Source: a virus
Lineage: Duplodnaviria > Caudoviricetes
DNA length: 24,022 nucleotides
Strand: one strand, 5' to 3'
IMG/VR virus record: IMGVR_UViG_3300025838_000133
Coordinates: 1-24,022 of that record
Shown: positions 2,411 through 21,836 of the stretch, one piece after another
Numbering within the stretch: the stretch's first letter is position 1
Layout of the letters: the number at the start of each line of letters is the position of its first letter
Program-made: the position numbers and the translations under genes
The notes under the pieces: model-generated
Told to the model about the DNA's origin: nothing
The model's input: only the letters and a program-made list of their open reading frames with translations
Databases searched by the model: none

Positions 2411-2508
2411 TGTATTATGTTTATGAAGTTTGTAGAGGAAAACAGAAAACGACTAAAGGCCATAAATTTATGTATTTAGATAAATACAACAATAAGGTTG
2501 ATCGATGA
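2410..2508 (+). pseudogene. Internally deleted homing endonuclease remnant (32 aa)
   Basis: MYYVYEVCRGKQKTTKGHKFMYLDKYNNKVDR*: a GIY-YIG-type start joined to a NUMOD1/IENR1-like tail. Coupled to both neighbours (TAATG at 2408-2412, ATGA at 2505-2508). Confidence 0.6.
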
Positions 2509-3215
2509 TGAATTATACTACGTATGTCACGTCGCTTGCAAACCTAATGGCTGCTGACCCAACAACGATAGATTTCCAAAATTTCCTTCCTGATTGCATA
2601 GCATACGCCGAAAACAGAATCTACAGGGAAATTGATTTATTAAACACTGTTGTTGTCAATGGGACACAATCTTTGACGGCGGGAGTGAGAAGATTCCCTA
2701 TCCCAACAAATGGTTCGGCAGGTATTTTTTATACAGTCACAGGGGTTAATGTTATCACTCCAGCGGGAGTTATCCCAGACAAAGGGGTAAGAAACCAGCT
2801 AACTGCTGTTTCTATGGATTACCTAAACTCTGTGTGGAATAGCAGCCAGACACTAAGTTTACCTCAAAGTTTTGCTATGGTTGACCAATTCAACATTATT
2901 GTTGGACCTTGGCCTGATCAGAGTTACGGCGTGGAAATTATTGGAACTGTTCAGCCTGCTCCGCTTTCTTCAGCGAACCCAACGACGTTCCTGACGACAT
3001 ATTTACAAGATTTATTCTTGGCGGCGAGTATGATATTTGCTTCTGGTTATATGAGGGATTTTGGTGCTCAGTCTGATAATCCACAACAGGCTGCATCATG
3101 GGAATCTCAATATCAAACCCTATTTCAGTCTGCCAATCTTCTTGAGTTACGCAAAAAGTGGGCGGGACCTGCTTGGACTCCGTTTTCGTCTATCCCAGTC
3201 TCCCAAACGAGATAA
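2505..3215 (+). CDS. Head-to-tail adaptor / tail tubular protein A-like
   Basis: 236 aa with pattern IAYAENRIYREIDL...VGPWPDQSY...LFLAASM...WESQYQ; lies directly before the tail tube/stabilisation gene. Confidence 0.7.
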   Translation: MMNYTTYVTSLANLMAADPTTIDFQNFLPDCIAYAENRIYREIDLLNTVVVNGTQSLTAGVRRFPIPTNGSAGIFYTVTGVNVITPAGVIPDKGVRNQLTAVSMDYLNSVWNSSQTLSLPQSFAMVDQFNIIVGPWPDQSYGVEIIGTVQPAPLSSANPTTFLTTYLQDLFLAASMIFASGYMRDFGAQSDNPQQAASWESQYQTLFQSANLLELRKKWAGPAWTPFSSIPVSQTR

Positions 3216-3218
3216 TAT

Positions 3219-5315
3219 ATGCCATTCCAAGAAATACAGCTCACACCCAATGTTGGCGTCAACGTTGAGCCAACCCCTGCTGGCAACCCAACAGGCATTC
3301 AGAGCAGTAATTTTATCCGTTGGCGAGCTAATTTGCCTGAAAAAAGGGGTGGTTGCTCGCTTTATATAAATCAACCTGTGAATGGCGTTCCGTGTGCTCT
3401 GAAGCCGTGGGGTGATTTTGAGGGTATTAATTATTTAGGAATAGCAACTAATTCTGCTGTATTAACATATAATGCTAATACTTCTGAGTTACGGGACATA
3501 TCTCCTCAGTATGTTAATTCATCATTAGCATCCCCTACATATAGCACGGCTGTTGGTTCTAACTTAGTAACAATAGTTGACACAACAGCTCCCTCTTTAA
3601 CAACATTTGATTCCGTACAATTCAACACACCGGTTGCCGTTGGTGGTTTAATTCTTGATTCAATATATCCTATTGTATCCTCATCGGTAGATACTCATAC
3701 ATATGTTATTAATGCAGGTTATGCAGCTACATCAAATGAGACAACTGTATCTGGAACATTAATAGGGTTTGAGACATTTGCTGGTAACGCGTCTGTTATT
3801 ATGGTTTTCCCTACTCAATATCAATATAATTCTATTGCTGTAGGGGATAGAATTGGATTTACAGTACCAACATCTGTTGGTGGATTAACAATTGTTGGGC
3901 AATATATCGTAACTCAAATATTGCAAGATGGGTTTATTACTTTTAATGCTCAATACGAGGCGTCAAGCAGCACTCCCTCTGGCGAGCCTGTTTTTATGAA
4001 TAATGGGTTTACTAGTTTAACGTATTGGATATCCGCATCCCCTGGGCCACCGCCACCTGCTTTGGAAAGAAAAGAGGGATTATTAAATACTATTCCTGAA
4101 ACATCAAAGGGCAGTCGTTTTAAAAGTTCTTTATCATCAACTTATACAGCAGATAATTGGTGGTTAGACAGTATTGAATCCACATTAGTTGCGTGTGCTC
4201 AGAATGGACCAATATTTACGTTTTCACCGATTGGTGGTTACCAAGATCTTTCGATCATCAATAGTGGTCCTCCGGCAAGCACAGGGGCTTTTGTTGCTAT
4301 GCCATCTGGACAGATTATGGCTTGGGGGACATCTGATTATTTAGACCCAGTTCAAAATCCTCTTTATATTAGGTGGTCGGATTCAACCAATTTTACTAAC
4401 TGGAATATTGGAGGTTCCAGCACTGCTGGATTTTATACAATACCAACAGGGTCTAAGATTGTTCGTGGAATACAAGCTCAAAACCAACAATTCTGGTTTA
4501 CTGACATAGATGTTTATTCAGCGCAATATACGTCCTATCCTACCTTTTTTAGCTTCCTAAAAATTGGTAATGGGTGCGGCTTATTATCCCCTAGGGGCGT
4601 AGGGATTGTAAATAATTCAGTATACTGGATGAGCCAAGAGCAATTTTTTGTTATGCAAAGCGGTTCTGCTCCACAGCCTTTGCCTTGTAGTGTTTGGGAT
4701 TTTATATTCCAAAACTCTACGCAAGATAAACTAGCAAAAACGGTATGCGGAGGTAACTCACTTTTTAACGAAGTGATATGGTATTTCCCAAGCAATGCCT
4801 CATCTGACGGAACGCCAGATGCGTATGTTTGTTATAATACTTTGTATAACGAATGGGATTTTGGTTATTTAGGACGAACAGCGTGGACTGACCAGTCAGT
4901 GTTGGGATTTCCTATTGGATCAGATGAAAACGGTTGGATATACCAGCACGAAACATCGTATGATCTAGCAGTAGGTGATACAACTGTTCCAATTAACGCA
5001 TCGATGCAAACTGGTTATTCAAGTCTTACAAATGGAGAAGACTTAATATTTGTTGATTGGGTTCTTCCTGATATGAAGTGGGGGACTTACTCTGGGTCAC
5101 CAACAGCTAATTTAAACTTTACTTTTTATGTTACAGATTATGCGGGGCAAACGCCTAGAGTTTATGGGCCGTTTACTGCGTCTGAACAGACACCATTTAT
5201 AAGTCCAAGATTTCGCGGGAGATTTATGTCGGTTAAGATTGAAAGCGACGATTTAGGTAGTTTCTGGAGATTGGGTTCTATTCGTTTTAGGTTTGCTCCG
5301 AGTGGGAGAAGATAA
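3219..5315 (+). CDS. Tail tubular protein B / packaged-DNA stabilisation protein (P22 gp10 / T7 gp12-like)
   Basis: 698 aa, beta-rich. Motifs IRWSD..NFTNW, GCGLLSP, VYWMSQ, FNEVIWYFPS, RTAWTD and C-terminal RFRGR...WRLGSIRF...GRR. Confidence 0.75.
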   Translation: MPFQEIQLTPNVGVNVEPTPAGNPTGIQSSNFIRWRANLPEKRGGCSLYINQPVNGVPCALKPWGDFEGINYLGIATNSAVLTYNANTSELRDISPQYVNSSLASPTYSTAVGSNLVTIVDTTAPSLTTFDSVQFNTPVAVGGLILDSIYPIVSSSVDTHTYVINAGYAATSNETTVSGTLIGFETFAGNASVIMVFPTQYQYNSIAVGDRIGFTVPTSVGGLTIVGQYIVTQILQDGFITFNAQYEASSSTPSGEPVFMNNGFTSLTYWISASPGPPPPALERKEGLLNTIPETSKGSRFKSSLSSTYTADNWWLDSIESTLVACAQNGPIFTFSPIGGYQDLSIINSGPPASTGAFVAMPSGQIMAWGTSDYLDPVQNPLYIRWSDSTNFTNWNIGGSSTAGFYTIPTGSKIVRGIQAQNQQFWFTDIDVYSAQYTSYPTFFSFLKIGNGCGLLSPRGVGIVNNSVYWMSQEQFFVMQSGSAPQPLPCSVWDFIFQNSTQDKLAKTVCGGNSLFNEVIWYFPSNASSDGTPDAYVCYNTLYNEWDFGYLGRTAWTDQSVLGFPIGSDENGWIYQHETSYDLAVGDTTVPINASMQTGYSSLTNGEDLIFVDWVLPDMKWGTYSGSPTANLNFTFYVTDYAGQTPRVYGPFTASEQTPFISPRFRGRFMSVKIESDDLGSFWRLGSIRFRFAPSGRR

Positions 5316-5693: not shown

Positions 5694-6287
5694 ATGCCTC
5701 TGAAACATGGAAAATCCCCCGCCGTCATTAGTGAGAACATCTCTGAGATGATACACGCTGGCCACCCGAGACGACAGGCAATCGCCGCTGCTCTTAACAC
5801 AGCGCGTAAGGCAATGGCTACTGGTGGGAAGCAGGCTCCTAAAGACCCAAAAGTATTTTCTGGGCCTCTAAAAGCCGCAATACCAGGGAGGACTGACCGT
5901 CTTCCTATTCACGTTCACAGCGGCAGTTACGTTATCCCCGCAGATATTGTTTCGGGGTTGGCGGAAGGAAACACGGAAGCTGGGTTTGAGGTCATCAAAA
6001 GAATGATCCACGATCAAATGTCTCGTGGTGGTAGAGTTGGCACGCAAAAGGAATTGCACAGCGAGCTTTTTCGTAAATATGGTTTAATTGGGCATTATCA
6101 CACTCCCACTAATTTAGTTCCCTGCATTGTTGCTGGAGGTGAATATATATTAACTCCAGAAGAGGTTGAAGCATTTGGTGATGGCGATTTAGATGCGGGT
6201 CATAAAGTGCTTGATGATTTTGTCAAATCACAACGCGCTAAGACAATTAAGACACTGCAGAAGTTGCCTGGGCCTGCTCGCGATTGA
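5694..6287 (+). CDS. Virion-associated protein with GG motifs and duplicated G(S/E)Y(V/I) modules
   Basis: [23 protein letters not shown] start; MATGG and MSRGGRV motifs; [22 protein letters not shown] and [17 protein letters not shown] modules. Confidence 0.75.
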
Positions 6288-6349: not shown

Positions 6350-7135
6350 ATGATGTATTATACATACGCTCATATTCGACCTGATACTGGGGTTATTTTT
6401 AATGTCGGAAAAGGCAGTAAAAGGCGTGCTTTTTCTAATAAAAATAGAAATAAAGACTGGCACTGTATTGTTAATGACAATAAAGGAAAATTTGAGGTCC
6501 GGATTTTGAATTGGTTTAATGCTGAACAGGATGCTTTAAATGCAGAAGTTTGGCAGATCGCTCAGTTGGCCCATTTAGGACATTTAATTAATAAAACTTC
6601 GGGCGGGCAAGGCATTTCTGGATATAATCATTCGGATGATTTAAAACAAAGGTATTCTAAAGAAAAGAAAGGCCTCCCTGTTCCTCAGGTTAGAACCCCA
6701 GAAGCAATAGATAAAATGGCAAAAACCCTTTCAATTAAAATGAAAAGTAAAGTTGTCCCGCAATTTCAGACAAACAGCGCTAAAGAAAAAAGGGCACAAA
6801 CTCAATCTAAAAATATGAAGGGTATTTTACCTCCTCAACTAGATACGCCAGAGGCACGGAAAAAACGCGGAAAAACTTTATCTTTGAATAGAAAAGGAAA
6901 ACCAACTGATTGGTTAAGAACACCAGCTGCTCTTGAAAATTTATCAAAAGCTACTTCTAAAAGATTAAAAGGAATAGTTCCAACGCAAATGTTAACTCCG
7001 GCAGCTATATTAAAAATGAGCATTACTCAATCAGAAAGGAAACGGGGTAAACCAACTCCTTGGCTTCATACTCCGGAAATTATTGAAAAAAGAGAAATTA
7101 AAAAACGCCGTAAATACGAATATTGGGGCACATAA
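6350..7135 (+). CDS. Free-standing GIY-YIG-family homing endonuclease with NUMOD3-like and tandem DNA-binding repeats
   Basis: YYTYAH...IFNVGKG..RRA, E in LNAEVWQI, LINKTSGGQG, YNHSDDLKQRYSKEKKG; very basic C-terminal repeats. Confidence 0.8.
   Translation: MMYYTYAHIRPDTGVIFNVGKGSKRRAFSNKNRNKDWHCIVNDNKGKFEVRILNWFNAEQDALNAEVWQIAQLAHLGHLINKTSGGQGISGYNHSDDLKQRYSKEKKGLPVPQVRTPEAIDKMAKTLSIKMKSKVVPQFQTNSAKEKRAQTQSKNMKGILPPQLDTPEARKKRGKTLSLNRKGKPTDWLRTPAALENLSKATSKRLKGIVPTQMLTPAAILKMSITQSERKRGKPTPWLHTPEIIEKREIKKRRKYEYWGT
6671..7120 (+). repeat. Six in-frame 25-aa repeats (G-x-x-x-P-Q/W-x-x-T-P-E/A-A...K..S.T.S)
   Basis: GLPVPQVRTPEAIDKMAKTLSIKMK / SKVVPQFQTNSAKEKRAQTQSKNMK / GILPPQLDTPEARKKRGKTLSLNRK / GKPTDWLRTPAALENLSKATSKRLK / GIVPTQMLTPAAILKMSITQSERKR / GKPTPWLHTPEIIEKREIKKRRKYE. 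Confidence 0.85.
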
Positions 7136-7605
7136 TGGCTGATTTAAATAATTGCGAAGACGTGCGTCTCGCTGAAAAAGAAGATGTTCCTGCTTTAATG
7201 AATTTAATGAGGATTGCTTGCGCAGAAGATGGCCAGCATCCAATAGATGAAGAAAAAGTTTTTGGGATGATACGCCGTTATTTTGATAAGGCGGGAGTAT
7301 TAATCTCTGTTATTGGAGAACTAGGGAACCCAGTTGCCTACTTGTTAATGACTATTAATCAAATTTGGTATAGCACTGATTACCAATTATTAGAGTTATC
7401 CCTATTTGTTCACCCAGATAATAGGCGTTCTAATTACGCTAAACAATTAATGTCTTTTTCCAAGCAGGCTTCAGACGGATTAGAACTTGATTTAACAATC
7501 GGTGTTTTATCCAACGAAAGAACCGAAGCAAAAGTAAGATTATACAAAAGACAGTTTGATCAGGTTGGGGCGTTTTTCGTCTATCATCCCTCTCAATCGC
7601 AGTAA
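7135..7605 (+). CDS. GNAT-family acetyltransferase (virion-assembly associated)
   Basis: VRLAEKEDVPAL start and LFVHPDNRRSNYAKQLM (acetyl-CoA motif A). ATG at 7135 overlaps the upstream TAA. Sits directly before the ejection genes. Confidence 0.8.
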   Translation: MADLNNCEDVRLAEKEDVPALMNLMRIACAEDGQHPIDEEKVFGMIRRYFDKAGVLISVIGELGNPVAYLLMTINQIWYSTDYQLLELSLFVHPDNRRSNYAKQLMSFSKQASDGLELDLTIGVLSNERTEAKVRLYKRQFDQVGAFFVYHPSQSQ

Positions 7606-7614
7606 GGACATAAA

Positions 7615-10600
7615 ATGGGCTCGAAATGCACCCCCATCGGTGGTTACTACCCCACTACAAGTAGCACATCCAGCAGCAGTAGCGGGACAAGCACGGGCTC
7701 AACTTCACAAACAGCTAACCCACTTTCAGCGTATGCTTACGCTCAGGCTCTGCAAAACGCTGCCAAGATCGCAGCTACGCCATATCAGCCCTATCAGGGG
7801 CAGATGGTGGCAGGGTTTGCCCCTTCGCAATTGGCTGCTCAGCAAGGTTTCCAGTGTGCCGTTGGGTATGCATCCCCGTATTATACATGCGCGGCAAAGA
7901 CGTATGCCAATAGTCTAAATTATCTGAATAATCCTCAGATGAAGACTGCACAAAATCTATATAATGCATCAATTAACTATGCTAATCCGTCAAATTATAA
8001 TCAAGGCACGCTTAACCAGTATATGAACCCATACCAGCAGAGCGTTGTTTGCGCCACTATGGGTCAGCTGGAACAAACAGAGAAACAGGCTTTAGGCCAA
8101 AATGCAGCTAATTCAGTATTGCAGGGAGCATATGGTGGGTCTGGCCAGTTTTTAGGAGAGGCACAAATTGCTCAGCAGCAAGCTTTGTCAAATGCTCAAG
8201 CGTTGGCAAGCCTAAATGCTGGTAATTATGCAAATGCTCAGCAGGAATATAACCAACAACAGGGTGTAGGAATAGGCGCAAACCAAGCTGCTGCACAAGC
8301 ACTTGGTGCTTTAGGGTATCAGCAACAAGCCGCAGATATTAGCGCACTTCAAAATGCTGCTCAGGGACAGGCTGCTCTTGGTAACCAAGCACAAACCTCT
8401 TACTTGCAAGCTCTCCAACAGCTAGCGGCTTCTGGGGCAACTCAGCAACAATTGGAACAAGCACAGCTTACAAATGCCTACCAGCAATATCAGAATGCTC
8501 TCGCTTACCCATATCAGCAAACGTCTTACTTTTCAGGTCTTGCTTCTGGGCTTGGACCTTTGCTTGGTTCTAATGTAAACACCACTGGAACAAGCTCTCA
8601 AACTGGTTCTGGTTCAAATACTTCTATACAGCCGTATCAAAACCAATCTGGGGCTGGAGGTTTGGCAGGTCTAGCTACGACAGGTCTTGGTATCTTGGGT
8701 GGACTTTTAAAACTGAAAAGCGGTGGTAGTGTCACGGGTAGAAAACATTTTGCAGTGGGCGGAACAGACGGTGGAGAGACGGAGGGTGTGAATGAAATTG
8801 ATGCCGATACTCTCGCCAGTTTAATTTCACAAGAGCCTTACACTAGCAAAAGCAGCTTAGGTTCAAGCTCCAATAGCAATGAAGGCTTTGGCTCTCTTCT
8901 AGGAAACGTGCCGTATTCAAGCTCATCACCAAATAAATACATAACTAATGCTTTAAAGCTATCTAAGGTTATACCGAGTGCTAAACAGGAATCAGCTGAT
9001 AAGCTGGCTTCTGAGATAAGAAACATATTAAGCAAAATACCAGATCTACCTACAATTCCTAATGCATCGGCAGATATAACATCTTCTTTCTATGGAGCAC
9101 CTTCAGACAGTGGTGCACAAGATAGCGGTTCATCAGGGTCATCTGAATCAGGCTCTTCAGAAGGTTCTTCAAGTGGTGGTTCATCGGGTCTTGGAGCATT
9201 AGCTAGTCTTTTCAGAGGAGGAAATGGTTCAAAGACTTCTTCTGAATGCTCTACAGTAGAGGGATGCTTAAGTAATAATATCTCTTCGTTGGGGTGTCTT
9301 TCCCTTTATCGCGGCGGTAGAATTAAAAAAGATGATGGCGGATCAACGGGAGCCGCTACTAATTCTCCTCAACAGCAGGCTCAATTCCTTCAGGGATTGT
9401 ATCAGTCCGATTTTAATCGAAACCCAGACCAAGGTGGGTTCAATTATTGGATGTGCCAGTTAGGAAAGGGAGCGTCACAACAATCTGTCCAGTCTGCGTT
9501 TGCTAATTCTCCGGAAGCTCAAACTGATTTGGGTAATCTTTATCAAAGCAATCTTGGTAGAGCTCCAGATTGCGGTGGATTGTCTTATTGGACAAATCAA
9601 TTAGCTGGAGGAGAAAGTCTTAACAACATCAAGTGTGCCTTTACTCGTTCAAACGAATACGCACAATTGAATGCTTGCCAAAAATCAGCATTAGCCGCGC
9701 AAGCTGCAAACGCTGCTGCTGCATCTGCTGCACCGGCTAATAGTTATAGCGGCCTATTGGCCAAGGCAATGGCAAATAACCCTGGGCCGCAACTTACGCC
9801 TGTCCAGCAGGGTATGCCAGCGATGCCATGCCAGTCATACTACACAACCCAAACATCAAATTATAATCCTGCAAGTTTGGCATCAATTCTTGATATATCA
9901 GGGTATAACCCAAATGCGTCAACGACGTCATCTCCTGCAACATCTACGTCAACAACTACACCATCAACAACATCTGGCGGGTGTTCATCATCTACAAGTG
10001 GGTCAACGACTGGAACAAAATGCCAACCTTCTTCAAACCAGCAAATAATTACCGCTCTCTATCAGGCTTATTTGGGTAGATCTCCAGATGCTAGTGGTCT
10101 TGCATACTGGGAAAACCAAATTGCATCCGGTATGCCTTTGACGACAGTTCAGCAGCTTTTTGCCGCGTCACCCGAGACCAAGGGGTCTTCTCAGGTAGAG
10201 GGGTATTATTCAAATATCGCCAATACAAATGTCAATCCGTATACTGGATTGTATAATTTAAATTACGTTGCCCCATATAAAAGTCAGCCAAATCTTTACA
10301 ATAAAGGTGGGAGAGTTGGAAAGGCAGCGGGTGGAAGATTAAGTGTTCAGGATATCGCTCGCGCTGCATTACAGGCTGGAGCAACACCAAAAGAAGCAGC
10401 GATGCTTACGGCTATTGCCCACCCCGAAAGCGGTGGAAATCCATATGCTCACAATCCTAACGCACGAACAGGCGATAACTCATACGGTCTATGGCAAATA
10501 AATATGCTCGGCAATATGGGACCAGAGCGTAGACATCAATTTGGAATTTCTAGCAACGAAGAATTATTTGACCCAGTAACAAATGCTAGAGCTGCGTTGA

Positions 10601-13600
10601 AGTTACTCCGTGGTGGCGGAGGACTTAATAACTGGACAACATTTACGCATGGAAAACATCTACCGTATTTTGCAACGTCTGCCAACGCTGTAAACGGATT
10701 AGTTGGTAACCCAAATGCGGTTAACGCTCCTATTGCAATGCCTGAAGGAAAACCATCTAACGCACTAGGATTTGGTCCTATTTCTTCAGGAAATACTAAT
10801 AAGATTGGTTCAAATGAACAAAATCTTAATGAAGCTCTGGGTAAGTTACTTGAAGGGATTGGAACTGAAACTCCCGCTCCTCATGAAATGATGTCTCATC
10901 ACGAAGTAAAGCCTGTAGATATTATTTCCGTTAAAAATACATCTGATATTCCAACACCACAAATCACAAATAATATACCTACTGGTAGATATCTAGACTC
11001 CTTACTCGCTGCTTCACAAGACGCAGATGCTGTTAAGAGAAGCAGGGGTGGTTTTACACGCGCTAATATGCAATACGGCGGTAATCCTGACGAGGCATCT
11101 CAGCAAAATTTCTTAAGACAACAGCTTGAAGGGTCTGCCCCACAATATGATCCAGAAGCAGGAAGTGCCTCTTTAGATAAATACGGTAACTTAGCAACAG
11201 ATGTTGGGCTTGGTCTTATGGCTGCAACGGGTGTTGGAGCTCCTGTTGCCGGCCCACTGTTAGCAGCAAAGCGCGCATATAGTATCGGAAAAAGAATAGC
11301 CAATGCTCCTGAGCCAAATTTTGGTGGATTGATTGAGTATCATCCGCAAGCTCCGCGAGGTCGTCAGCCATCTCCATCTGGAGAGCCTATTACGGCTGGT
11401 ATCAACGTGCCTCGAAAGGATATGAATAGGTTTGAGGCAAACACAGAGGGTATGCGAAGAGGCATCCCAGGTAACGAGATATACAGGTGGTCTTCATTGC
11501 GTGATCCAAAGGGCAGCCAGCCTATGGATGCTATGGAGCAAGGACGCACAGGATTGTCTTGGAACCGTTGGGGTGCATACGAGCCTAACAAGGCTCCAGC
11601 ATATTTTGACGAGTATAGTTCTGTATCTGCACCTAGGGTTTCAACGGATACAGGGTCTCGATCATTAAATCGGTATGACGCTAACACCGAGGGTATGCGT
11701 CTAAATAAAGCCGGAGACGATTTATACCTAGGAAGTGTCGCCAGAGGTCCTGTAAGCAAAGGGTTTGCTCCTGAGAATATGGGATTTACACCCGCAGAAC
11801 TAGGTCAGGAGATTATGTCTGCGAGAGGACGTGGGATGTCCCCTCCTTCAAGCGGCGGTTTAGCAACTCAAACTGGCAGCATTATGCAGCCACCTAGTGG
11901 CGGTGGCGGTGGTGGCGGTCAATTGCCTCCCTACGTCCCATACGGTGAATTTACTGATGTCACAGGACATCTTTTGACAGGTTCAAGTGGTGGTGGTCGT
12001 CCTCCCATCCCTCCAGCAAATCGCAGCGGTACGGATATTGTCCCCGTTCCTAGTGGCGGAGGACGCTTTCCACGTAATATGATTACAAAGACTGCCCTGA
12101 CGATGAACCAGCCTCCGGCACAACCTTCAGTTGTCGCTGAGACGCCCACAGAGGGACGCACGGTGTTGCTTCCTCCGATGGATGTTGGGTCAAGATTTAA
12201 ACAAAAAACCAATCCAACAGTAAGTAAGGATCACAAAGAATATCACCACAATCGCCACAATGCCAAAAAGTCACCACCAAAAAGCACTGAAAAATACTGG
12301 GGTGACTGGCGCGATGTTGAGCCGTTTAACTCGGACCCAATCGGTAATTTTTTAGATACGCTTACAGGTGATGTTAAAGCGTCTAATAAACGCGGAAACA
12401 TTAATTCTCCTATGTCACCATATGCGGGTAAGGGATTGGGTAGCTTATTCTCTGATGGAGGCTCTGTAAGAGAACATTTTGAGGAAGGCGGGACGGCAGA
12501 CGCCGGAGGATTTGGATCGTTATTTAAGGACGTTTCATTTAAACCAGGGCCTCTTTCTCAGGGTTTGATTACCGCTGGGTTAGGCATGATGGCGTCTCCA
12601 TCTCACAACACGCTTCGCGCAATAGGAGAGGGTGGTTTACAAGGTATAAAAGCATATAATGCCGCCTCTCTGCTGCAACAAAAGCACAACGAAGACTTAG
12701 CTGAGATAGAAAAGAATAAAGAATTTTTTAAGTCTCTAAATTATGGGGAAAGACCTGAAACAGGGTCAAATATAACTCCTAACCTGTTAAGTCCTGTTCC
12801 GGTTGGCGGAGATACGCCTCCCCCACTTGGAAGATCGCTTGGTGGTTTAGCGCGTCACAGATACGCAGATGGCGGTGGTTCTTCTGATGATTTTGATCCT
12901 ATTGGAGATATTACAAGTGGATTGGGAAGACTTGGCGACACAATAGGAAGCGGTATAGAGGGTGTATTGAGCCCTCTGCTTTCTCTTGACCAATCTAAAA
13001 CCAGAAACAACACGCCTCTCCCTGTACGACACGGCCCGAGTCCTCTTTCTCAGGGGTTGATTACGGCTGGTCTTGGAATGATGGCATCTCCTTCTCACAA
13101 CACATTAAGAGCAATAGGAGAGGGTGGGTTGCGTGGCGTGCAAGAATATAACACTGCCAAGTCTATTCGAGACAAGCAGGATCGAGAAGAAGAAGAAAGA
13201 GCATCTAATATCAAGTTTGGCAAGGATCTTACGCCAACTCGTATTGTTCCCACCAAAGCTGTTTCGATTGACAATGTAAACCCAGTAGTCGCAACAGATA
13301 GGAATGAAACAAAACAATTAGACCCTATTGAAGCATCTATGCGTCGTATTTCTTACTTGAACTCTCATGTTCCAGAGAATGCCACGCAAAAAGAAATTCT
13401 CACTCGTCTCATAAACGAGGAGAAATATAAGATTGATCAATACAACAAGCAAAACGCTGGTGTTATAGGGATTATCGATACTGATAAATTTGGCCGTCCT
13501 GTAAGAGGCTACATCAGCGGTCCAAAGCGTGGTCAGCCGTTAAATATCGCACCTGTAGGAGGAGATAGGGTTGCCCCTACTGATAAAAACCTTCACGGTG

Positions 13601-14367
13601 AAGACCTCTTGAATACTCTTGATCAAGACATGGCTAACACAGTCAGGTCTATCGCAAGCGGTGCTACTGAATTTAAAGATACACCAAAGAACGCGACAAT
13701 TAAAAACGCGCTCCTCCAGTATGACCCTCAATTTAATACGCAACGCTTTAAGTTAAGAGACGACCTGCGCAAGAATACTCCTAACTCAATGGGTAATATT
13801 GTAAATGTTGGCAATACTGCCCTTGACCATCTGAGATTAGCCTCCGACGCAGTTGAAGATCTTCGTAAGAAAGAATACGCAGGTGGTAAATACAGAACGC
13901 TTAATTGGATTCAAGGAATAAAATCCTATGGCCCAAGTGGTTTCCCTGAACTTGAGGAATTTAATACTGCCAAGCAGCGTTTCGTAGATGAAGCTACCAA
14001 GTTTTATCGTGGCGTCGGTGGTAACTTGCACGACATTAAAGAAGCGGAAGCAAGACTAAATGCTGCGCGAAACCCAGATGAGTTACACGCAATCATACAG
14101 CAAGAGGCTAGACTTTTTGCTTCAAAAGTTAATGCTCTAAGTGATCAGTATGACAGGTCGTTCAAGTCTCCATATGTGGAATACGATAAATTCGATCCGA
14201 TAGACGAGAAGGGGCACTCGGCTTTAGATGTTATTAACAGCCGAGGACTTAAAAATGAGACGACAAAATCTCCGCAAATGTCGGGGCCAAAAGTTGGCGA
14301 TGTTATAAAGGGATATCGCTTCAAAGGTGGTGACCCTCGTGATCAAAACAACTGGGAGAAACAGTGA
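7615..14367 (+). CDS. Giant internal virion/ejection protein (2250 aa): pilot-like N-terminus, 3 DUF4214-like repeats, lytic transglycosylase, DNA-transfer-like C-terminus
   Basis: PYQPYQGQMVAGF and YMNPYQQSVV Q/A-rich N-terminus; LY...GR.PD..GL.YW repeats; AIAHPESGGNP...SYGLWQIN SLT motif; C-terminal GYRFKGGDP...NWEKQ. AAGGA RBS. Confidence 0.85.
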   Translation: MGSKCTPIGGYYPTTSSTSSSSSGTSTGSTSQTANPLSAYAYAQALQNAAKIAATPYQPYQGQMVAGFAPSQLAAQQGFQCAVGYASPYYTCAAKTYANSLNYLNNPQMKTAQNLYNASINYANPSNYNQGTLNQYMNPYQQSVVCATMGQLEQTEKQALGQNAANSVLQGAYGGSGQFLGEAQIAQQQALSNAQALASLNAGNYANAQQEYNQQQGVGIGANQAAAQALGALGYQQQAADISALQNAAQGQAALGNQAQTSYLQALQQLAASGATQQQLEQAQLTNAYQQYQNALAYPYQQTSYFSGLASGLGPLLGSNVNTTGTSSQTGSGSNTSIQPYQNQSGAGGLAGLATTGLGILGGLLKLKSGGSVTGRKHFAVGGTDGGETEGVNEIDADTLASLISQEPYTSKSSLGSSSNSNEGFGSLLGNVPYSSSSPNKYITNALKLSKVIPSAKQESADKLASEIRNILSKIPDLPTIPNASADITSSFYGAPSDSGAQDSGSSGSSESGSSEGSSSGGSSGLGALASLFRGGNGSKTSSECSTVEGCLSNNISSLGCLSLYRGGRIKKDDGGSTGAATNSPQQQAQFLQGLYQSDFNRNPDQGGFNYWMCQLGKGASQQSVQSAFANSPEAQTDLGNLYQSNLGRAPDCGGLSYWTNQLAGGESLNNIKCAFTRSNEYAQLNACQKSALAAQAANAAAASAAPANSYSGLLAKAMANNPGPQLTPVQQGMPAMPCQSYYTTQTSNYNPASLASILDISGYNPNASTTSSPATSTSTTTPSTTSGGCSSSTSGSTTGTKCQPSSNQQIITALYQAYLGRSPDASGLAYWENQIASGMPLTTVQQLFAASPETKGSSQVEGYYSNIANTNVNPYTGLYNLNYVAPYKSQPNLYNKGGRVGKAAGGRLSVQDIARAALQAGATPKEAAMLTAIAHPESGGNPYAHNPNARTGDNSYGLWQINMLGNMGPERRHQFGISSNEELFDPVTNARAALKLLRGGGGLNNWTTFTHGKHLPYFATSANAVNGLVGNPNAVNAPIAMPEGKPSNALGFGPISSGNTNKIGSNEQNLNEALGKLLEGIGTETPAPHEMMSHHEVKPVDIISVKNTSDIPTPQITNNIPTGRYLDSLLAASQDADAVKRSRGGFTRANMQYGGNPDEASQQNFLRQQLEGSAPQYDPEAGSASLDKYGNLATDVGLGLMAATGVGAPVAGPLLAAKRAYSIGKRIANAPEPNFGGLIEYHPQAPRGRQPSPSGEPITAGINVPRKDMNRFEANTEGMRRGIPGNEIYRWSSLRDPKGSQPMDAMEQGRTGLSWNRWGAYEPNKAPAYFDEYSSVSAPRVSTDTGSRSLNRYDANTEGMRLNKAGDDLYLGSVARGPVSKGFAPENMGFTPAELGQEIMSARGRGMSPPSSGGLATQTGSIMQPPSGGGGGGGQLPPYVPYGEFTDVTGHLLTGSSGGGRPPIPPANRSGTDIVPVPSGGGRFPRNMITKTALTMNQPPAQPSVVAETPTEGRTVLLPPMDVGSRFKQKTNPTVSKDHKEYHHNRHNAKKSPPKSTEKYWGDWRDVEPFNSDPIGNFLDTLTGDVKASNKRGNINSPMSPYAGKGLGSLFSDGGSVREHFEEGGTADAGGFGSLFKDVSFKPGPLSQGLITAGLGMMASPSHNTLRAIGEGGLQGIKAYNAASLLQQKHNEDLAEIEKNKEFFKSLNYGERPETGSNITPNLLSPVPVGGDTPPPLGRSLGGLARHRYADGGGSSDDFDPIGDITSGLGRLGDTIGSGIEGVLSPLLSLDQSKTRNNTPLPVRHGPSPLSQGLITAGLGMMASPSHNTLRAIGEGGLRGVQEYNTAKSIRDKQDREEEERASNIKFGKDLTPTRIVPTKAVSIDNVNPVVATDRNETKQLDPIEASMRRISYLNSHVPENATQKEILTRLINEEKYKIDQYNKQNAGVIGIIDTDKFGRPVRGYISGPKRGQPLNIAPVGGDRVAPTDKNLHGEDLLNTLDQDMANTVRSIASGATEFKDTPKNATIKNALLQYDPQFNTQRFKLRDDLRKNTPNSMGNIVNVGNTALDHLRLASDAVEDLRKKEYAGGKYRTLNWIQGIKSYGPSGFPELEEFNTAKQRFVDEATKFYRGVGGNLHDIKEAEARLNAARNPDELHAIIQQEARLFASKVNALSDQYDRSFKSPYVEYDKFDPIDEKGHSALDVINSRGLKNETTKSPQMSGPKVGDVIKGYRFKGGDPRDQNNWEKQ
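9376..10180 (+). repeat. Three DUF4214-like repeats inside the giant protein
   Basis: LYQSDFNRNPDQGGFNYWMCQL...FANSPE; LYQSNLGRAPDCGGLSYWTNQL...FTRSNE; LYQAYLGRSPDASGLAYWENQI...FAASPE. Confidence 0.8.
10336..10680 (+). other. Lytic transglycosylase (SLT-like) domain inside the giant protein
   Basis: Putative catalytic Glu in HPESGG (codon at 10426), GLWQIN, LFDPVTNARAA, WTTF. Confidence 0.85.
12550..13131 (+). repeat. Two identical 30-aa modules PLSQGLITAGLGMMASPSHNTLRAIGEGGL (12550-12639 and 13042-13131)
   Basis: Identical at protein level; 12 of 30 codons differ, all synonymously. Confidence 0.95.
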
Positions 14368-16097
14368 TGGCTGGCCCTTGGGAGGATTACCAAAATATAG
14401 AAGGTCCTTGGACGGAGTATCAAAAGGCTTCTAATGAGGAAACTCCTAAAACAAACCAAGGGTGGCGAGGCGATGTCGCGGCTGCTATGCGCGGTGCCCG
14501 CGAGCAGATACCATTTGGTAGGGACTTGGGGGCTTTACTAAAGTCTTATACTAATAACGTCCCATTTGAAGAAGAAAAAAGAAGACAGGAAGCGAGAGAC
14601 GCCGCTCTGGCAAAAGAACACCCTTGGTCGTATGGGGCTGGCGAAGTTGCTGGCGGTATTGGAACTGTTTTAGCTCCTGAGTTAGCTGGAATAGGAATGG
14701 CTAGCAAGGCTTTAAAGGGCGAGCAAGCTGTCGCCAAAGCCTTAACGCCGTATTTGGGAACGACTGATGCCAAAATCGCTACTGCATTAGGCAGCGGCAT
14801 GGCGTCAGGAGCGGCTCAGGGTGCTGTACACGGCTTGGGGACAGGCACGTCTCTTGACGAAAGACTTGGACACGCTGCTGAAGAGGCTGCTGTTGGAGCC
14901 CCACTAGGATTAGCTGGAACAGCACTAGGACACGCCGCGTCAAGAGGCTTGCGTAAGGCTGGAGAGATGGCTGGTAGGGTCGCTCCGCTTCCTAAGGGTC
15001 CTACTTCAGAAGAAATCCTGAGACGTGGTTCGGCGGCATACGACTTAGCAAGAGCACAGGATCTTTTTATCGGAGCTCCTCACGTTGCCAGTATGGTTAA
15101 TAATTTAGAGGGTAAACTTGCCAGAGAAGGCTACCGTCCGAAACTACACCCAAAAATAGGGCCTGCTCTGGATGAATTACGAAGCCACAGCGGTGCTATG
15201 ACACTGGATGACTTGGATCAGATTTACAGATTAACTAGATCTGCGGCTGTAGACTGGACAGACAGAGACCAGCAAAGAATAGCAGGAATATTCAGAGGTC
15301 ACATTAATAATTTCTTGGATACGCTACACCCAACACAGACTTGGAGTAGGACGGGCAGTCCAACAGCTGCTGTTTCATCTCTTAAGCAGGGCCGTCAGCT
15401 TTGGAAGCAAGGCAGGAAGATGGAGCAAATCCAAGAAATGATTAACGCCGCTAAAGACAGAGCTCAGACATCTGGCACAGGCGGAAACTATAACAACACA
15501 CTTCGTCAAGAGGCACGCAAATTACACAACGAGGCAAAAAGACACCCTCGTATGTGGACTACAGACGAATTGCAGGCACTCAAAGAATTATATGGCGGCA
15601 CAATTTCTCAAAATACTGCCAGACTGTTGGGGCGGTTCTCACCCGCTCACCACCCTTTAATCGGAACGGCTGAAGTAATCGCTGGATTATCTAACCCTAC
15701 GGCTGCTCTTGGTATGGCTGCTGCCGGTCTTGGGGCTCACGTGGCAGAGGATCAACTGACAAATATGGCTAAGAAAAACTTAGTAAATATTGTTGCAGCC
15801 AAAGGCGATAAATCAAGAGTTCCTCAATTAAATCCAATAGAATCTCTTGTTGGACGCCAAGCAGGAGCTATCGGTGTTCCTTCTTTCATGGCGTCTCCAG
15901 AAGAGCATGAAGACGACAGAGGGCCATACGCCAGCGGCGGTTCAGTAAAGAAAAGAGATTACCCTGCTAAAAGATTAACGCGCATGGAGAAGGCTGTTAA
16001 GAGAGCACAGGATGCTATTGCACTTGAGACGAAGCCTCTAATGAACCAGCCTGATCATGTTATTGCCCAAGCTCTGGAAATAGCCAAGGTGAAATAA
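14367..16097 (+). CDS. Internal virion / DNA ejection protein
   Basis: MAGPWEDYQ..GPWTEYQ start; Gly/Ala-rich hydrophobic helices; YASGGSV motif near the C-terminus; TGATG coupling to the giant gene. Confidence 0.8.
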   Translation: MAGPWEDYQNIEGPWTEYQKASNEETPKTNQGWRGDVAAAMRGAREQIPFGRDLGALLKSYTNNVPFEEEKRRQEARDAALAKEHPWSYGAGEVAGGIGTVLAPELAGIGMASKALKGEQAVAKALTPYLGTTDAKIATALGSGMASGAAQGAVHGLGTGTSLDERLGHAAEEAAVGAPLGLAGTALGHAASRGLRKAGEMAGRVAPLPKGPTSEEILRRGSAAYDLARAQDLFIGAPHVASMVNNLEGKLAREGYRPKLHPKIGPALDELRSHSGAMTLDDLDQIYRLTRSAAVDWTDRDQQRIAGIFRGHINNFLDTLHPTQTWSRTGSPTAAVSSLKQGRQLWKQGRKMEQIQEMINAAKDRAQTSGTGGNYNNTLRQEARKLHNEAKRHPRMWTTDELQALKELYGGTISQNTARLLGRFSPAHHPLIGTAEVIAGLSNPTAALGMAAAGLGAHVAEDQLTNMAKKNLVNIVAAKGDKSRVPQLNPIESLVGRQAGAIGVPSFMASPEEHEDDRGPYASGGSVKKRDYPAKRLTRMEKAVKRAQDAIALETKPLMNQPDHVIAQALEIAKVK

Positions 16098-16605: not shown

Positions 16606-17682
16606 ATGAAGTTTGACGGTGTTCCGCTCGAGGAACTGCAAAAAACCAAAGAAATATTCGACAAATTAAAGTCTAACTCAGAAACAGGAAGAGCCTTGGG
16701 TATTCACAGAAGGACGGTTCAGCATCGCCTAAATCGTCTGGAAAAGATAAATCCAAAGTTTACATCTCCAAAATTACCCACAAAATCTAGAGATATTGAA
16801 GAATTAATACAAGCGAGGATTGAAGAAAGCAGAAGGGCTAAAAATGCAGACACCTCAAGAGATTTGGTTAAAATCCCTTTACACATCGATGGCCCTGTGG
16901 GCCTGTTGGTATTCGGAGACCCTCACGTTGATGACGCAGGCTGCGACTTTGAGCTCCTCGCCGCGCACAAAGAAATAGCATCTTCTCACCCTCACATTTT
17001 GGCCGCATCCATAGGGGACTATCAAAACAACTGGATTGGCCGATTGGGAGTTTTATACGGTGAGCAGCAAGTCACAAGTAGAGAAGCGTGGAAACTCGTT
17101 GAGTGGCTCGTTTCTGATATACACTGGTTGTTTCTTATTAGTGGCAATCATGACCTATGGACAGGTGCTGGCGACCCTTTGGATTGGATTGCAGGACAAC
17201 AGGGTTCAATTTACGAGCCTTATGGCGTGCGGATCGAATTGCAGCACCCATGTGGTAGCAAGACGCGTATTCACGCCAGACACGACTTCCCTGGTCAGTC
17301 AATCTATTCGCAGCTACACGGGCCACGCCGTGAAGCAATAATGGGATTCAGAGATGATTTAATTATATGCGGACATAAACACACTGGTGCCGTCGAAACA
17401 TTTGTCACTCCTGACGGTAATGTGTGTCAAATTGTCCGCGTATCTGGTTATAAAGTCGTAGACAGTTACGCAAAGCAATTAGGTTTAAAAAAGCATCAAA
17501 TATTTCCAGCTGCTTTGATTATTATAGACCCGTCAGCGCCAAATACTTCGCCAAATCGAATATTTACCGCCCCATCCGTCGAAAAAGGTATTATAATACT
17601 CGACGCCTTGCGGGCGGATTTCGAATCATCGCGGAGTACACCTAATGTGCAAAATCACAAACCAAAAACTCGTCGAAAATAA
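16606..17682 (+). CDS. Calcineurin-like metallophosphoesterase with N-terminal HTH
   Basis: GDPH, GDYQNN, GNHD, ARHD and GHKH motifs; N-terminal SETGRALGIHRRTVQHRL HTH. Confidence 0.85.
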   Translation: MKFDGVPLEELQKTKEIFDKLKSNSETGRALGIHRRTVQHRLNRLEKINPKFTSPKLPTKSRDIEELIQARIEESRRAKNADTSRDLVKIPLHIDGPVGLLVFGDPHVDDAGCDFELLAAHKEIASSHPHILAASIGDYQNNWIGRLGVLYGEQQVTSREAWKLVEWLVSDIHWLFLISGNHDLWTGAGDPLDWIAGQQGSIYEPYGVRIELQHPCGSKTRIHARHDFPGQSIYSQLHGPRREAIMGFRDDLIICGHKHTGAVETFVTPDGNVCQIVRVSGYKVVDSYAKQLGLKKHQIFPAALIIIDPSAPNTSPNRIFTAPSVEKGIIILDALRADFESSRSTPNVQNHKPKTRRK

Positions 17683-17929: not shown

Positions 17930-18152
17930 GTCACACGAATTTGTCCAAATGCCTGACGGACAGACAATGATGTTAGAGGATAAGATTTCTTCTCGTGTGA
18001 CAGCCTATACTAATTTATTATTGGAACTTAGAAACGTAAAGGAAGAAAAGATAGTCGAAGAAGGTTTGCTTATGCTTGCCAGACTTCGACTATCAATTAA
18101 TATAGTACCAGAGACAACTGTATCGGTTATGAAGGGTGGAAAGTCTAGCTAA
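17922..18152 (+). CDS. Hypothetical protein
   Basis: 76-aa ORF with GGAG upstream; last + strand gene before the convergence point. Confidence 0.6.
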   Translation: MDESHEFVQMPDGQTMMLEDKISSRVTAYTNLLLELRNVKEEKIVEEGLLMLARLRLSINIVPETTVSVMKGGKSS

Positions 18153-18813
18153 GACTTGGATAATCCCCTTCTCTTTCTAAATCTCTACGACACGGCGGTA
18201 TCCAGAGCAATTCGCTGCCGCCATTTATTGTTAAGTGAGTATTTTGAAAAGGCGTGTCATTATTCCAGATAAGCCAACAGTAACTGGTTGCTGTTGATGC
18301 GTTCTTGTCTATCATACCCTTAACCATAGGCACACGCTCACTAAATTGAGCAACAGTTGTCGGAGGGCTATCTTTAAATAACCTATTATAACGCCCGACG
18401 CTTTCGATGAACGACGTTCTAACGAGCATGGCCACACCTCTGCGAGCGCGCAGTCGTGCCTCCCTGATAAATTCTTCCGCGTATTTATACGGAGGGTTCG
18501 TGATAATCCACGCCACCCGCTGGGAGCTGGGCGAATTGAGGAAGTCTTGGACGCCGCCATATCCATACTCATATTTGTCGGTTGAGTATACCGTTTCAAA
18601 ATACTCTTCTAATGTGGCAGACATATAACCACGACCACACGCTGGCTCCCAAGCATCCCACATTTTTCTGTTTGAGTTAAATAATAATATCTTTTCGCAT
18701 AAAGCGCGTGTAGCCCACGGAGGTGTCAGAAAGTCATCTGGCTCGTCTGAACCACTTTTGCGTATTCCGGCAACCGCGTAATTTTCATTAGGCAACATCT
18801 GTGTTACTCTCAA
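18145..18813 (-). CDS. Orphan SAM-dependent DNA methyltransferase (amino-MTase, probably N6-adenine)
   Basis: DDFLTPPWAT, WEPACGRG (motif I), ITNPPY (motif IV), SYCWLIW. Confidence 0.85.
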   Translation of the reverse strand: MRVTQMLPNENYAVAGIRKSGSDEPDDFLTPPWATRALCEKILLFNSNRKMWDAWEPACGRGYMSATLEEYFETVYSTDKYEYGYGGVQDFLNSPSSQRVAWIITNPPYKYAEEFIREARLRARRGVAMLVRTSFIESVGRYNRLFKDSPPTTVAQFSERVPMVKGMIDKNASTATSYCWLIWNNDTPFQNTHLTINGGSELLWIPPCRRDLEREGDYPSLS

Positions 18814-20489: not shown

Positions 20490-20882
20490 TCAAATCTTTC
20501 TTGTGTGTCTAACCGCGAAGTGTTGGTGAGGGACACAATACACAGGTTCATTTAACACAGAGTATTCTAATATCATGCTGTCTGTGTTGTGGACTCTTGA
20601 TGCACAAATGGCGTCATCCCACGCAGCCATAACTTCAAATGGATTTCCTGTAGTCCTAAATAATTCCAATCCAGACATTATTTTTGCACAAGAATAATAA
20701 GCGCGTTTGTCCCCTTCTTTTTTACCTTCTGCGCGAGTGTATGTAAGCCACTTGTGAGGAACACCGTCTTTTAAAAGCAAGTATTCTATTCCATACATAG
20801 GAGGAAGAGACACCACAGTTTCTTTCGGGCTGAGTATTCTCTTTATCACATCCATTTCTTTGTTTCGTTCTGCGTTATCCAT
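20490..20882 (-). CDS. Hypothetical protein
   Basis: ORF 20490..20936; MDNAER start at 20882 preferred because it overlaps the upstream stop and has a purine-rich leader. Confidence 0.6.
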   Translation of the reverse strand: MDNAERNKEMDVIKRILSPKETVVSLPPMYGIEYLLLKDGVPHKWLTYTRAEGKKEGDKRAYYSCAKIMSGLELFRTTGNPFEVMAAWDDAICASRVHNTDSMILEYSVLNEPVYCVPHQHFAVRHTRKI

Positions 20883-21462
20883 CGTCGTTTTTCCCTTTTT
20901 GATTATGCATAAATAAATCTGGAAAGGCGTCTTCATACCTCTTCAGAAACTTTCTACCGTGTAAAACTAACTGTCTTTTTATATTCTCATTACGCTTTGT
21001 GGTCATGTAATACTTTAAAGCAACACTGATGTGGTCTATGTGAGACAAAAGACGCACCATAGGGTCGCGCATAAAATCTATGTGACTGTCTCTTACCAAC
21101 TTTACTACACCATCATACTCAATAGACGATAAGCCGTCGCCCTTGGGGTAAAAAGGTGTTTCCGAGTTTATAAGGTCGCAAGATAAATTTAAAAAATGAA
21201 ATACTCTAGACTCACAATCACTGAGATTGTTTTTATCAAAGAAAATATACTTAACGTATCCTATCTCGAGTATATTAATTTGATTGCTGGCGTGTAAATC
21301 ACTTCTCGCGGCGGTGAGATGCTTCTGAACACGATTTCTTATTTGCTCAGACTTGCCTACGTAGACAGGGATTTCATCTAAGTCACACAGTATATACACG
21401 CCAGATTTATTAGGTAATTTTTCAACTTGTTTTTCCCTAAAAGCAATGTCTACGCTAAACAA
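20875..21462 (-). CDS. GIY-YIG nuclease
   Basis: LPNKSGVYILCDLDEIPVYVGKSEQIRNRVQKH (UvrC-N-like GIY-YIG); TTG start with GGAGGT RBS. Confidence 0.8.
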   Translation of the reverse strand: MFSVDIAFREKQVEKLPNKSGVYILCDLDEIPVYVGKSEQIRNRVQKHLTAARSDLHASNQINILEIGYVKYIFFDKNNLSDCESRVFHFLNLSCDLINSETPFYPKGDGLSSIEYDGVVKLVRDSHIDFMRDPMVRLLSHIDHISVALKYYMTTKRNENIKRQLVLHGRKFLKRYEDAFPDLFMHNQKGKNDDG

Positions 21463-21476
21463 TAAAACCTCCTAAA

Positions 21477-21836
21477 TTATTCAAACATTCCACGCCTTGG
21501 CGGTAATGGAATCTTTTCTTTCTTTTCTTTTTTAGCAAACCCGCGAGATTTAATTTTCGTCTTAGCGACTTTAGCTCCCAAATGCTTTGCTTCGACCCTT
21601 TTGGACTTAGCAATGGTCTTGACATCAATTTTAGTTTTTTCCGAATGACAGGATATGCATAAAAGGACCGCATTAGATTCTTTGGCTTCGCCTCCCATGG
21701 CATCCGGTTTTTCATGATCTATCTCAAACTTTTTTGCTGGTAAGTTACACTTTTCACAATAAACAATCCCATTATCTTTCATTGCCCTTTTTATTACGGC
21801 AACTCTTATTTTTTTGCTAAATTCCTTTCTTGCCAT
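21477..21836 (-). CDS. HNH endonuclease
   Basis: CEKC...EIDH...GG...N..LLCISCHSEKT motif. Confidence 0.85.
   Translation of the reverse strand: MARKEFSKKIRVAVIKRAMKDNGIVYCEKCNLPAKKFEIDHEKPDAMGGEAKESNAVLLCISCHSEKTKIDVKTIAKSKRVEAKHLGAKVAKTKIKSRGFAKKEKKEKIPLPPRRGMFE

Follow-up and report, generated by a model that had tools for sequence, protein, structure and literature searches.

A conserved A-x-G-G seam punctuates a predicted giant ejection polyprotein of short-tailed phages

The IMG/VR virus record IMGVR_UViG_3300025838_000133, a 24-kb record (24,022 nucleotides, 42% complete) that we call the window, carries on its plus strand a single open reading frame (ORF; 7615–14367) encoding a protein of 2250 amino acids (aa; 237 kDa, 11.5% Gly). 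From the ORF and its gene order, we predict that this protein, hereafter the giant, is an ejection polyprotein. Upstream lie genes for an SU10-type tail adaptor (SU10_adaptor) and a nozzle-like virion protein (together 2505–5315, plus strand; family matches), a 125-aa protein, a 197-aa protein, a homing endonuclease and a GNAT acetyltransferase (7123–7605, plus strand; family match), the last of which directly precedes the giant and is conserved in this gene module. The gene for a 577-aa protein follows directly downstream. The order adaptor, nozzle-like protein, 197-aa protein, GNAT and giant recurs, as judged by eye, in most of the 84 loci with enough contig, and the MW202675 homologue in the adaptor/nozzle region is annotated 'phage stabilization protein'. 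The adaptor and nozzle-like genes place the locus in a short-tailed phage, in which the giant would occupy the ejection-protein position. Like podovirus ejection proteins, the giant lies after adaptor/nozzle and GNAT genes and matches an ejection-family profile, although in its first segment only (phrog_4287, 'DNA ejection protein', aa 22–362, E = 1.8e-9). Instead of three separate genes as in P22- and T7-like phages, the locus holds one 2250-aa frame and the 577-aa gene.

The giant contains 48 GG dipeptides, and an initial annotation had singled out six places where two of them flank a basic spacer of 6–10 aa, interpreting these as domain boundaries and as signals for protease cleavage, capsid loading or both. 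All six pairs were found where it had placed them, with GG at aa 370/382, 567/575, 898/906, 1145/1155, 1615/1625 and 1743/1753. The spacers are 10, 6, 6, 8, 8 and 8 aa long, as described, and are basic in five of the six, their net charges being +2, +1, +2, +1, −2 and +1 for sites 1–6. Such pairs exceed the expectation from Gly content: GG-x(6,12)-GG occurs 11 times, versus 2.5 times in global shuffles and 4.1 times in 100-aa local shuffles, and 11 copies are reached by 0 of 2000 global shuffles and by 0.95% of local shuffles. Patterns tighter than this one were fitted to the giant itself and are circular.

Relatives were collected with the 197-aa protein as query (best 80 of 261 IMG/VR relatives) and with the pilot region (7). 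Among them are 50 giants of at least 1150 aa, which reduce to 36 at 80% identity, each with 2–13 broad motifs. A weight matrix was trained on 101 sites from 24 of these 36 non-redundant giants, the training set being free of the window protein, the proteins of the whole-genome set and near kin; this makes the test less circular, with the seed pattern picked after the window protein had been viewed. The consensus of the training sites is R-G/x-G/H-[F/Y/L/R/K]-A-x-G-G-x-[V/P/A/I]; 70% of them have Ala at −2, and most have an aromatic or basic residue at −3. Applied to the giant, the matrix places nine of the 12 claimed GG dipeptides in the top 10 of all 48, whereas the first GG of sites 1, 2 and 4 ranks 17, 18 and 24.

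The signal is a conserved seam, and its unit is a single [R/K/H/F/Y/M]-A-x-G-G-x-V rather than a pair. Of the 47 clusters in ejection proteins, 32 have a second GG at a distance of 5–14 aa, as do 18 of the 43 in post-portal proteins, which are encoded between portal and GroES/scaffold. Because this second GG is common but optional, the excised basic spacer that had been proposed is not the essence of the motif. Across 207 sites the residue before the Ala (P1) is Y in 62, F in 53, R in 33, K in 25, M in 24 and H in 10. Codons vary across seams, and conservation is at the protein level; a DNA-level repeat was rejected because codons differ among the six seams, as judged by codon comparison without a repeat finder.

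The six seams divide the giant into seven segments, all on the plus strand, whose sizes are computed from the predicted cuts. Segment 1 (aa 1–379, 39 kDa; 7615–8751) is pilot- or DNA-ejection-like and contains the phrog_4287 match; it ends in seam 1 (8722–8763; pattern and matrix), where a cut before Ala is predicted at F379/AVGG. The Ser-rich segment 2 (aa 380–572, 19 kDa; 8752–9330, bounded by predicted cuts) matched no family and had no BLAST match among 75 related cargo proteins, and seam 2 (9313–9342; pattern and matrix) is a weaker match with a predicted cut at K572/DDGG. Segment 3 (aa 573–903, 34.5 kDa; 9331–10323) carries three DUF4214 repeats (Pfam) and is followed by the best-conserved seam, seam 3 (10306–10335; alignment and matrix), with a predicted cut at K903/AAGG. 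Segment 4 (aa 904–1152, 26 kDa; 10324–11070) is an SLT_3 lytic transglycosylase (Pfam, aa 916–1009), and seam 4 (11047–11082) corresponds to a gene break in a relative described below. Segment 5 (aa 1153–1622, 50 kDa; 11071–12480, bounded by predicted cuts) is Pro/Gly-rich; its first module also opens a free-standing gene and follows a GG in a post-portal protein of genome G001. Seam 5 (12457–12492; pattern and matrix), with a predicted cut at F1622/EEGG, leads into segment 6 (aa 1623–1750, 13 kDa; 12481–12864; alignment), an additional copy of module A with seams at both edges. Seam 6 (12841–12876; predicted cut Y1750/ADGG) has the highest matrix score, and segment 7 (aa 1751–2250, 55 kDa; 12865–14364; alignment) comprises module A and a C-terminal region.

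The domain labels first given to these segments thus hold for the pilot-like N terminus, the three DUF4214 stretches, SLT_3 and the module A duplication, which is visible in local alignment; the last segment had been called DNA-transfer-like, and its C-terminal region matched no named family in profile scans. Cys residues are scattered through segments 1–3 (window 7615–10100) and are few, by eye, in most relatives; locus L063 drifts similarly.

To place the motif among protein classes, we scanned 11 complete genomes, ten picked for completeness among the IMG/VR matches plus MW202675 (G002 and G003 are close kin). Classes were assigned by gene position, and the remaining class includes mechanical ORFs. 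The pattern [RKFYMH]A.GG occurs 54 times versus 6.8 in shuffled sequences in post-portal proteins (21 of 25 proteins), 52 versus 10.2 in ejection proteins (17 of 23) and 10 versus 0.7 in the 197-aa family (7 of 10). It is at chance in other structural proteins (4 versus 5.8; 4 of 140 proteins) and in remaining ORFs (20 versus 16.8; 20 of 427). The seam is thus conserved in homologues and enriched 5- to 14-fold in predicted head-cargo proteins, with chance levels elsewhere. Nor is it peculiar to the giant: it is a genome-wide tag that also stands on both neighbouring proteins in the window, the 197-aa and the 577-aa protein.

Seams fall at module boundaries, as had been proposed. Of 29 Pfam domains drawn from 23 proteins (one best stretch for each family, excluding S74, two N-terminal DUF6321 and overlapping secondary families), 18 begin within 30 aa after a motif, compared with a null mean of 3.4 and a maximum of 10 in 2000 draws; nine of the 29 lie more than 50 aa from a motif or have none upstream. 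Only one of 144 motif sites is inside a domain, versus 11.4 expected. Segments are also exchanged among relatives while the motifs persist. Specifically, the position behind the equivalent of seam 3 is filled by SLT_3 in the window protein (W) and L009, by Phage_lysozyme2 in L002 and by Hydrolase_2 in L011, each beginning 4–26 aa after the seam, and six muralytic domain families occur among the window giant and 30 related proteins scanned. The DUF4214 cassette of segment 3 also stands after a motif in a post-portal protein of G004. In the post-portal region, one protein of 1000–2400 aa in G002–G005, G007 and G009 is replaced by three motif-bearing genes in MW202675, and seam-bearing post-portal proteins carry ART-PolyVal, InPase, M15 peptidase or GNAT domains.

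Gene fission is seen at a seam as well. In G001 (L009), the closest relative among the matches listed, segments 1–4 and segments 5 plus 7 are two genes split at seam 4. The upstream product ends in a decayed GG pair, and the downstream product begins M-A-E-S-G, its start lying 8 nucleotides past GGAG if the second ATG is used. In this one case the encoded start is the N terminus that a cut before Ala would be expected to leave. The same gene break, together with Met at P1 in 24 of the 207 sites, could instead mark the GG pairs as in-frame Shine–Dalgarno sequences (GGAGG), that is, relics of gene fusion or internal starts. We rejected this reading, which we find scarcely credible, on codon use: GGA serves as the first Gly codon in 2% of the 207 sites but makes up 12% of all Gly codons, and none of 10 GG..M sites begins with GGA.

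A seam that is copied with each inserted module could also be a flexible hinge and evolutionary crossover point that nothing reads. The Gly-rich composition of the protein, the degeneracy of some seams and the additional module A bounded by seams on both sides would suit such a hinge. However, flexibility does not require Ala at −2 or an aromatic or basic residue at −3, the varying codons provide no DNA-level crossover repeat, and the single motif is not in excess in other structural proteins, whose Gly content is 7.9%, or in remaining ORFs, at 9.1%. We therefore consider this explanation quite improbable.

Peptidase_S74 domains, self-cleaving chaperones best known from tailspikes, occur in 24 of 30 related ejection-region proteins, two of them below the curated cut-off (examples are L022:11868–16106 and L041:11185–15240). 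They lie mostly near the end of the pilot segment or after it, and occur twice in at least six proteins; the Pfam scan found none in the window giant. Their frequency implies that such chains tolerate processing, and we found no account in the literature of S74 domains inside ejection-region proteins.

The sole mapped case of the seam string is in the tail protein pb2 of phage T5, which matures into pb2* and pb2C through a cut located after R1127 by liquid chromatography–mass spectrometry (Linares et al. 2023, PMC10038345). The sequence at this cut is R/AEGG, so that cleavage precedes the Ala; it is one of two [FYMRK]xxGG strings in 1219 aa, and the cut yields the 92-aa pb2C. The same combination of a basic or aromatic P1 and A-x-G-G is found exactly at seams 1, 3 and 6 of the giant (F/AVGG, K/AAGG and Y/ADGG), with Ala replaced by D, Q and E at seams 2, 4 and 5. 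Moreover, pb2 is an ejected virion protein, and the cut parts a muralytic motif from the rest according to the authors, although the available passages of their paper do not name the string as a motif. It differs in being a siphophage tail protein with one cut followed by a G-E-H-G-T-E-V-V module, whereas the giant would be short-tailed-phage head cargo with six orphan seams.

Since the string is a cleavage site in T5 pb2, cutting is the likeliest function of the seam, as initially proposed, with the register moved from the GG to the bond before A-x-G-G. We consider it moderately probable that the seam is a maturation site, cut before A-x-G-G during assembly and not after GG. If so, the phage head would be loaded with the giant as a single chain, cleavage immediately ahead of the Ala in every seam would follow, and the freed pieces (pilot, DUF4214 repeats, muramidase, and membrane or channel modules) would be ejected separately.

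This arrangement resembles prohead-protease systems, such as the maturation of head and ejection proteins by T4 gp21, in that one short motif is cut in many packaged proteins; here, however, capsid, portal and scaffold proteins carry the motif only at the chance level, and no prohead protease was recognised among the core families scanned. Polyproteins of the Gly-Gly/X type, processed by the Ulp1-type cysteine proteases adenain and ASFV (African swine fever virus) pS273R, are cut after GG, whereas conservation at the seam lies N-terminal of the GG and the T5 cut precedes A-x-G-G; no Ulp1-type family was present among the proteins scanned. The SPN3US prohead protease gp245 acts at 14 sites in nine packaged proteins (PMC10052503). 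On the cleavage reading, the seam would work like T5 pb2 maturation and prohead-protease cargo processing but, by the comparisons applied here, is a member of neither. Papers on JBD30, 80alpha and P1 gave no mapped cut at this motif, and we found no description of the seam in the literature, with subscription papers, figures and bioRxiv supplements mostly outside the scope of that search.

Two further virion proteins carry similar strings. Lambda gpH is processed to gpH* and gpHC with the loss of about 14 kDa from its Gly-rich C-terminal region, site and enzyme being given as unknown in PMC12617516. A GEFV module in gpH is flanked by FATGG at 733 and YATGG at 778, and a cut after F733 would free 12.5 kDa, which is only a loose fit. 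In phage crAss001, the cargo protein gp45 (L128:16988–19516; cargo protein C1, PF25725) resembles the giant as virion cargo encoded after the muzzle gene and punctuated by A-x-G-G at 207, 261, 330, 425, 560 and 826, two of these sites being taken by eye with Ser or Asn at P1. PF25725 itself had no match in the window and one sub-cut-off match in five relatives. Portal-bound gp45 density starts at residue 425 (Bayfield et al. 2023, PMC10172136), which is the Ala of N/AFGG, and the resolved pieces 214–245 and 425–552 each lie between A-x-G-G sites.

Published matrix-assisted laser desorption/ionization (MALDI) peak lists exist for 13 gel bands of crAss001 virions (PMC6235969, supplementary file 8), and we re-matched these to 22 crAss001 proteins at 70 parts per million, using a contaminant list. 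Twelve structural proteins, including the 93-kDa portal, match bands 3–13 (gp47, gp50, gp49, gp44, portal, gp26, gp22, gp25, gp23, capsid, gp36 and gp29). The 91-kDa gp45 is at chance in all 13 bands, with 0–5 peaks per band versus 0–5.6 expected, which fits a cut gp45 indirectly. No semi-tryptic masses generated by gp45 seams were recognised by eye in the peak lists, and the 15- and 35-kDa bands are gp29 and gp36. The published intact-chain model of gp45 may need to be checked.

The cut might instead come later: the chain would be ejected whole, and only after its entry would a peptidase of the host periplasm or cytoplasm process the seams. Trimming of P22 gp7 by the host enzyme OpdA leaves a protein that begins K-G-G-K-G (PMC8402733), and a title cited in PMC12617516 reports that the host takes part in cleaving a T5 tail protein. 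A post-entry cut would also suit the failure to find a phage protease. We nevertheless regard it as very improbable, given that T5 and lambda proteins are cut during assembly and that the gp45 pieces are already about 420 Å apart in the virion (PMC10172136). P22 gp7, gp16 and gp20 and their T7-type counterparts share with the giant their position and a pilot-like N terminus, but are separate genes with one N-terminal trim; in two loci with P22-like separate genes (L006 and L007), the pilot has one or two loose motif matches and the genes after it have none.

Several observations weigh against cleavage before A-x-G-G. Seams 2 and 4 score weakly, at 1.3 and 0.8 bits, and P1 is chemically broad, with Asn at crAss001 A425, which is loose for one protease. 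No recognisable protease occurs among the 17 families common to at least seven of the 11 genomes, a scan that did not cover every ORF. The motif is also kept 3–22 aa from free protein ends (L004, L005 and MW202675), where a cut would free almost nothing, and the doubled pattern is raised in remaining ORFs too (21 versus 7.2, in nine proteins). T5 and crAss001 are distant phages, and none of the six giant seams is followed, on inspection, by the G-E-x(1-3)-E/F-V module seen behind the T5 site, a similar module being present in the 197-aa neighbour. The crAss001 authors model gp45 as one intact chain, 'cleav' and 'proteoly' appearing nowhere in their main text (PMC10172136), cryo-electron microscopy density can begin at the edge of a domain in an uncut chain, and motif-free gp46 is likewise unmatched in the gel data, in which only excised bands were analysed. 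Finally, the N4 virion RNA polymerase is polyvalent cargo that is packaged unprocessed (PMC5512222).

Polyvalent proteins (Iyer et al. 2017, PMC5512222) resemble the giant in being large multi-domain cargo of virions, encoded in late-gene regions and predicted to be processed, and several disparate domains are indeed joined in this one large virion-region polypeptide. Their hallmark domains LPD, ART-PolyVal, InPase and MPTase are all missing from the giant, whereas ART-PolyVal and InPase occur in the seam-bearing post-portal proteins of relatives. Processing is credited there to built-in zincin- or assemblin-like peptidases, which are absent here, and 'glycine' does not appear in the available text of that paper.

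Many of these points would be accommodated by an uncut docking handle, in which the A-x-G-G-x-V strand completes or binds a module of the 197-aa type or a portal or tail surface, and so tethers cargo or paces ejection. Motifs at the free N and C ends of separately encoded proteins, up to 17 copies in a Lys-rich post-portal protein, the broad P1, the lack of a protease and the whole packaging of N4 RNA polymerase (PMC5512222) all suit a handle, as does the opening of a small G-E-x-V-core module by the motif in lambda gpH, T5 pb2C, crAss001 gp45 and repeat 2 of the 197-aa protein, the crAss001 module binding the portal wing (PMC10172136). However, the sole mapped case, T5, is cut, a handle is not needed at every domain boundary while interiors are avoided, and the homology of the 197-aa module to those of gpH and gp45 is weak. 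We hold docking alone to be possible but doubtful; cutting and docking are not exclusive, and a cut could also create the handle.

The 197-aa protein (5694–6287, plus strand) is present in all 11 complete genomes. According to profiles and a structural model, it combines an N-terminal helical tag (phrog_2423), two xxGG strings and a doubled hairpin-helix-helix module with a G(S/E)Y(V/I) core. Residues R66-T67-D68, D84, E91, E150, H170 and D174 are invariant among 41 aligned relatives, and AlphaFold2 predicts two hairpin-helix-helix repeats with a predicted local distance difference test score of 80 for the whole and 83 for the core. Foldseek returned nothing in the PDB at E ≤ 0.001 and only uncharacterised phage proteins in BFVD; VIA gave best Z scores of 5.9 (N-terminal helices) and 3.5 (core) and no protease fold, which excludes nothing. 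A core profile, which includes extra columns from eight longer proteins, matches 6,800 clusters at E ≤ 0.001, and the core also caps polyvalent proteins of 900–1600 aa that are themselves motif-punctuated. Its resemblance to the gpH and gp45 modules is weak (pairwise hidden Markov model E of 2e-4 and 3e-3 at Z = 1; hhalign probability 3%). The protein is a candidate reader of the seam or a bare cargo carrier.

As for the enzyme of a cut before A-x-G-G, a tentative lead is the small module that tape-measure proteins carry after A-x-G-G and of which the 197-aa neighbour has two copies. The next candidates are a host peptidase and a gene of 165–200 aa ahead of the capsid gene. The latter lies between the scaffold and capsid genes in 10 of the 11 genomes (for example L089:12493–13020 in G001, and L086:19558–20055), a spot where a prohead protease often lies, and it matched no Pfam, PHROG, NCBIfam or named Atlas family. 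A SprT-like peptidase was rejected because, of the 11 genomes, it matched in MW202675 only. That one code, P1/A-x-G-G, cuts T5 pb2, lambda gpH, crAss001 gp45 and podophage ejection polyproteins, with the tape-measure module as a self- and trans-acting peptidase, seems to us unlikely. Two likenesses were set aside: a Kelch 'YAVGG', found only for lambda gpH against designed Kelch proteins and judged to be chance, and a link between the module and crAss_CARG1, an ESM Atlas lead of 0.86 only that Pfam did not confirm. PDB sequence searches with alignments A1 and A2 and with giant aa 1–1200 gave nothing significant.

Downstream of the giant, the 577-aa protein (14364–16097, plus strand) has a single YASGG (aa 522, DNA 15927) before a conserved C-terminal helical tail of about 50 aa. 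This tail (15927–16097), comprising the motif, about 50 aa and a terminal D-x-x-I/V-x-x-A-L helix, recurs by eye in the protein after the giant in 10 of the 11 genomes and is likely to be a packaging or anchoring tag. Many cargo proteins similarly have, at their start or end, a short amphipathic helix that the motif separates from the rest. The terminal-helix pattern, which was drawn after viewing the proteins and is circular in design, occurs terminally in 7 of the 25 post-portal proteins, 8 of the 23 ejection proteins and all 10 proteins of the 197-aa family, compared with about one expected from internal windows in the post-portal and ejection classes. This distribution suggests that the seam-bounded terminal helix is a packaging tag. 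Capsid loading, initially ascribed to the GG pairs, may therefore belong to this separate helix, although the giant itself has no obvious terminal amphipathic helix by eye.

Other features of these loci were noted. A Lys/Pro-rich protein of 330–720 aa with 5–17 motif copies (L086:16829–17977 and equivalents) is encoded before GroES in most of the 11 genomes; a core or DNA-condensing protein cut into small peptides is one possible role. A phage-encoded GroES-like gene lies directly before the scaffold gene in 10 of the 11 (L086:18254–18643 and equivalents). In the window, four endonuclease genes of the homing, GIY-YIG or HNH type (6350–7135, 20875–21462, 21477–21836 and 21817–22425) include one between the 197-aa and GNAT genes, where L009 has a similar insert and most relatives have none. 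The tail-gene region also holds a methyltransferase-glycosyltransferase-tetratricopeptide repeat fusion (521–2098), and genes for a helix-turn-helix metallophosphoesterase and a DNA methyltransferase (16606–17682 and 18145–18813) lie at the late/early strand junction.

Cutting at the seams would mean that the injected payload is built as a polyprotein in a large group of environmental short-tailed phages. A domain lying between any two seams would then be packaged and released alone, and the free exchange of muramidases and other cargo would have an explanation. With the T5 register, one can test at the level of single residues where in lambda gpH the cut falls and how it is made, and likewise whether crAss001 gp45 threads the portal intact or already in pieces. 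Were a single code to serve all these proteins, the lambda gpH site and enzyme would be named and the crassvirus ejection model would be re-read. Chosen proteins could also be loaded into phage heads by means of a helix-plus-seam tag.

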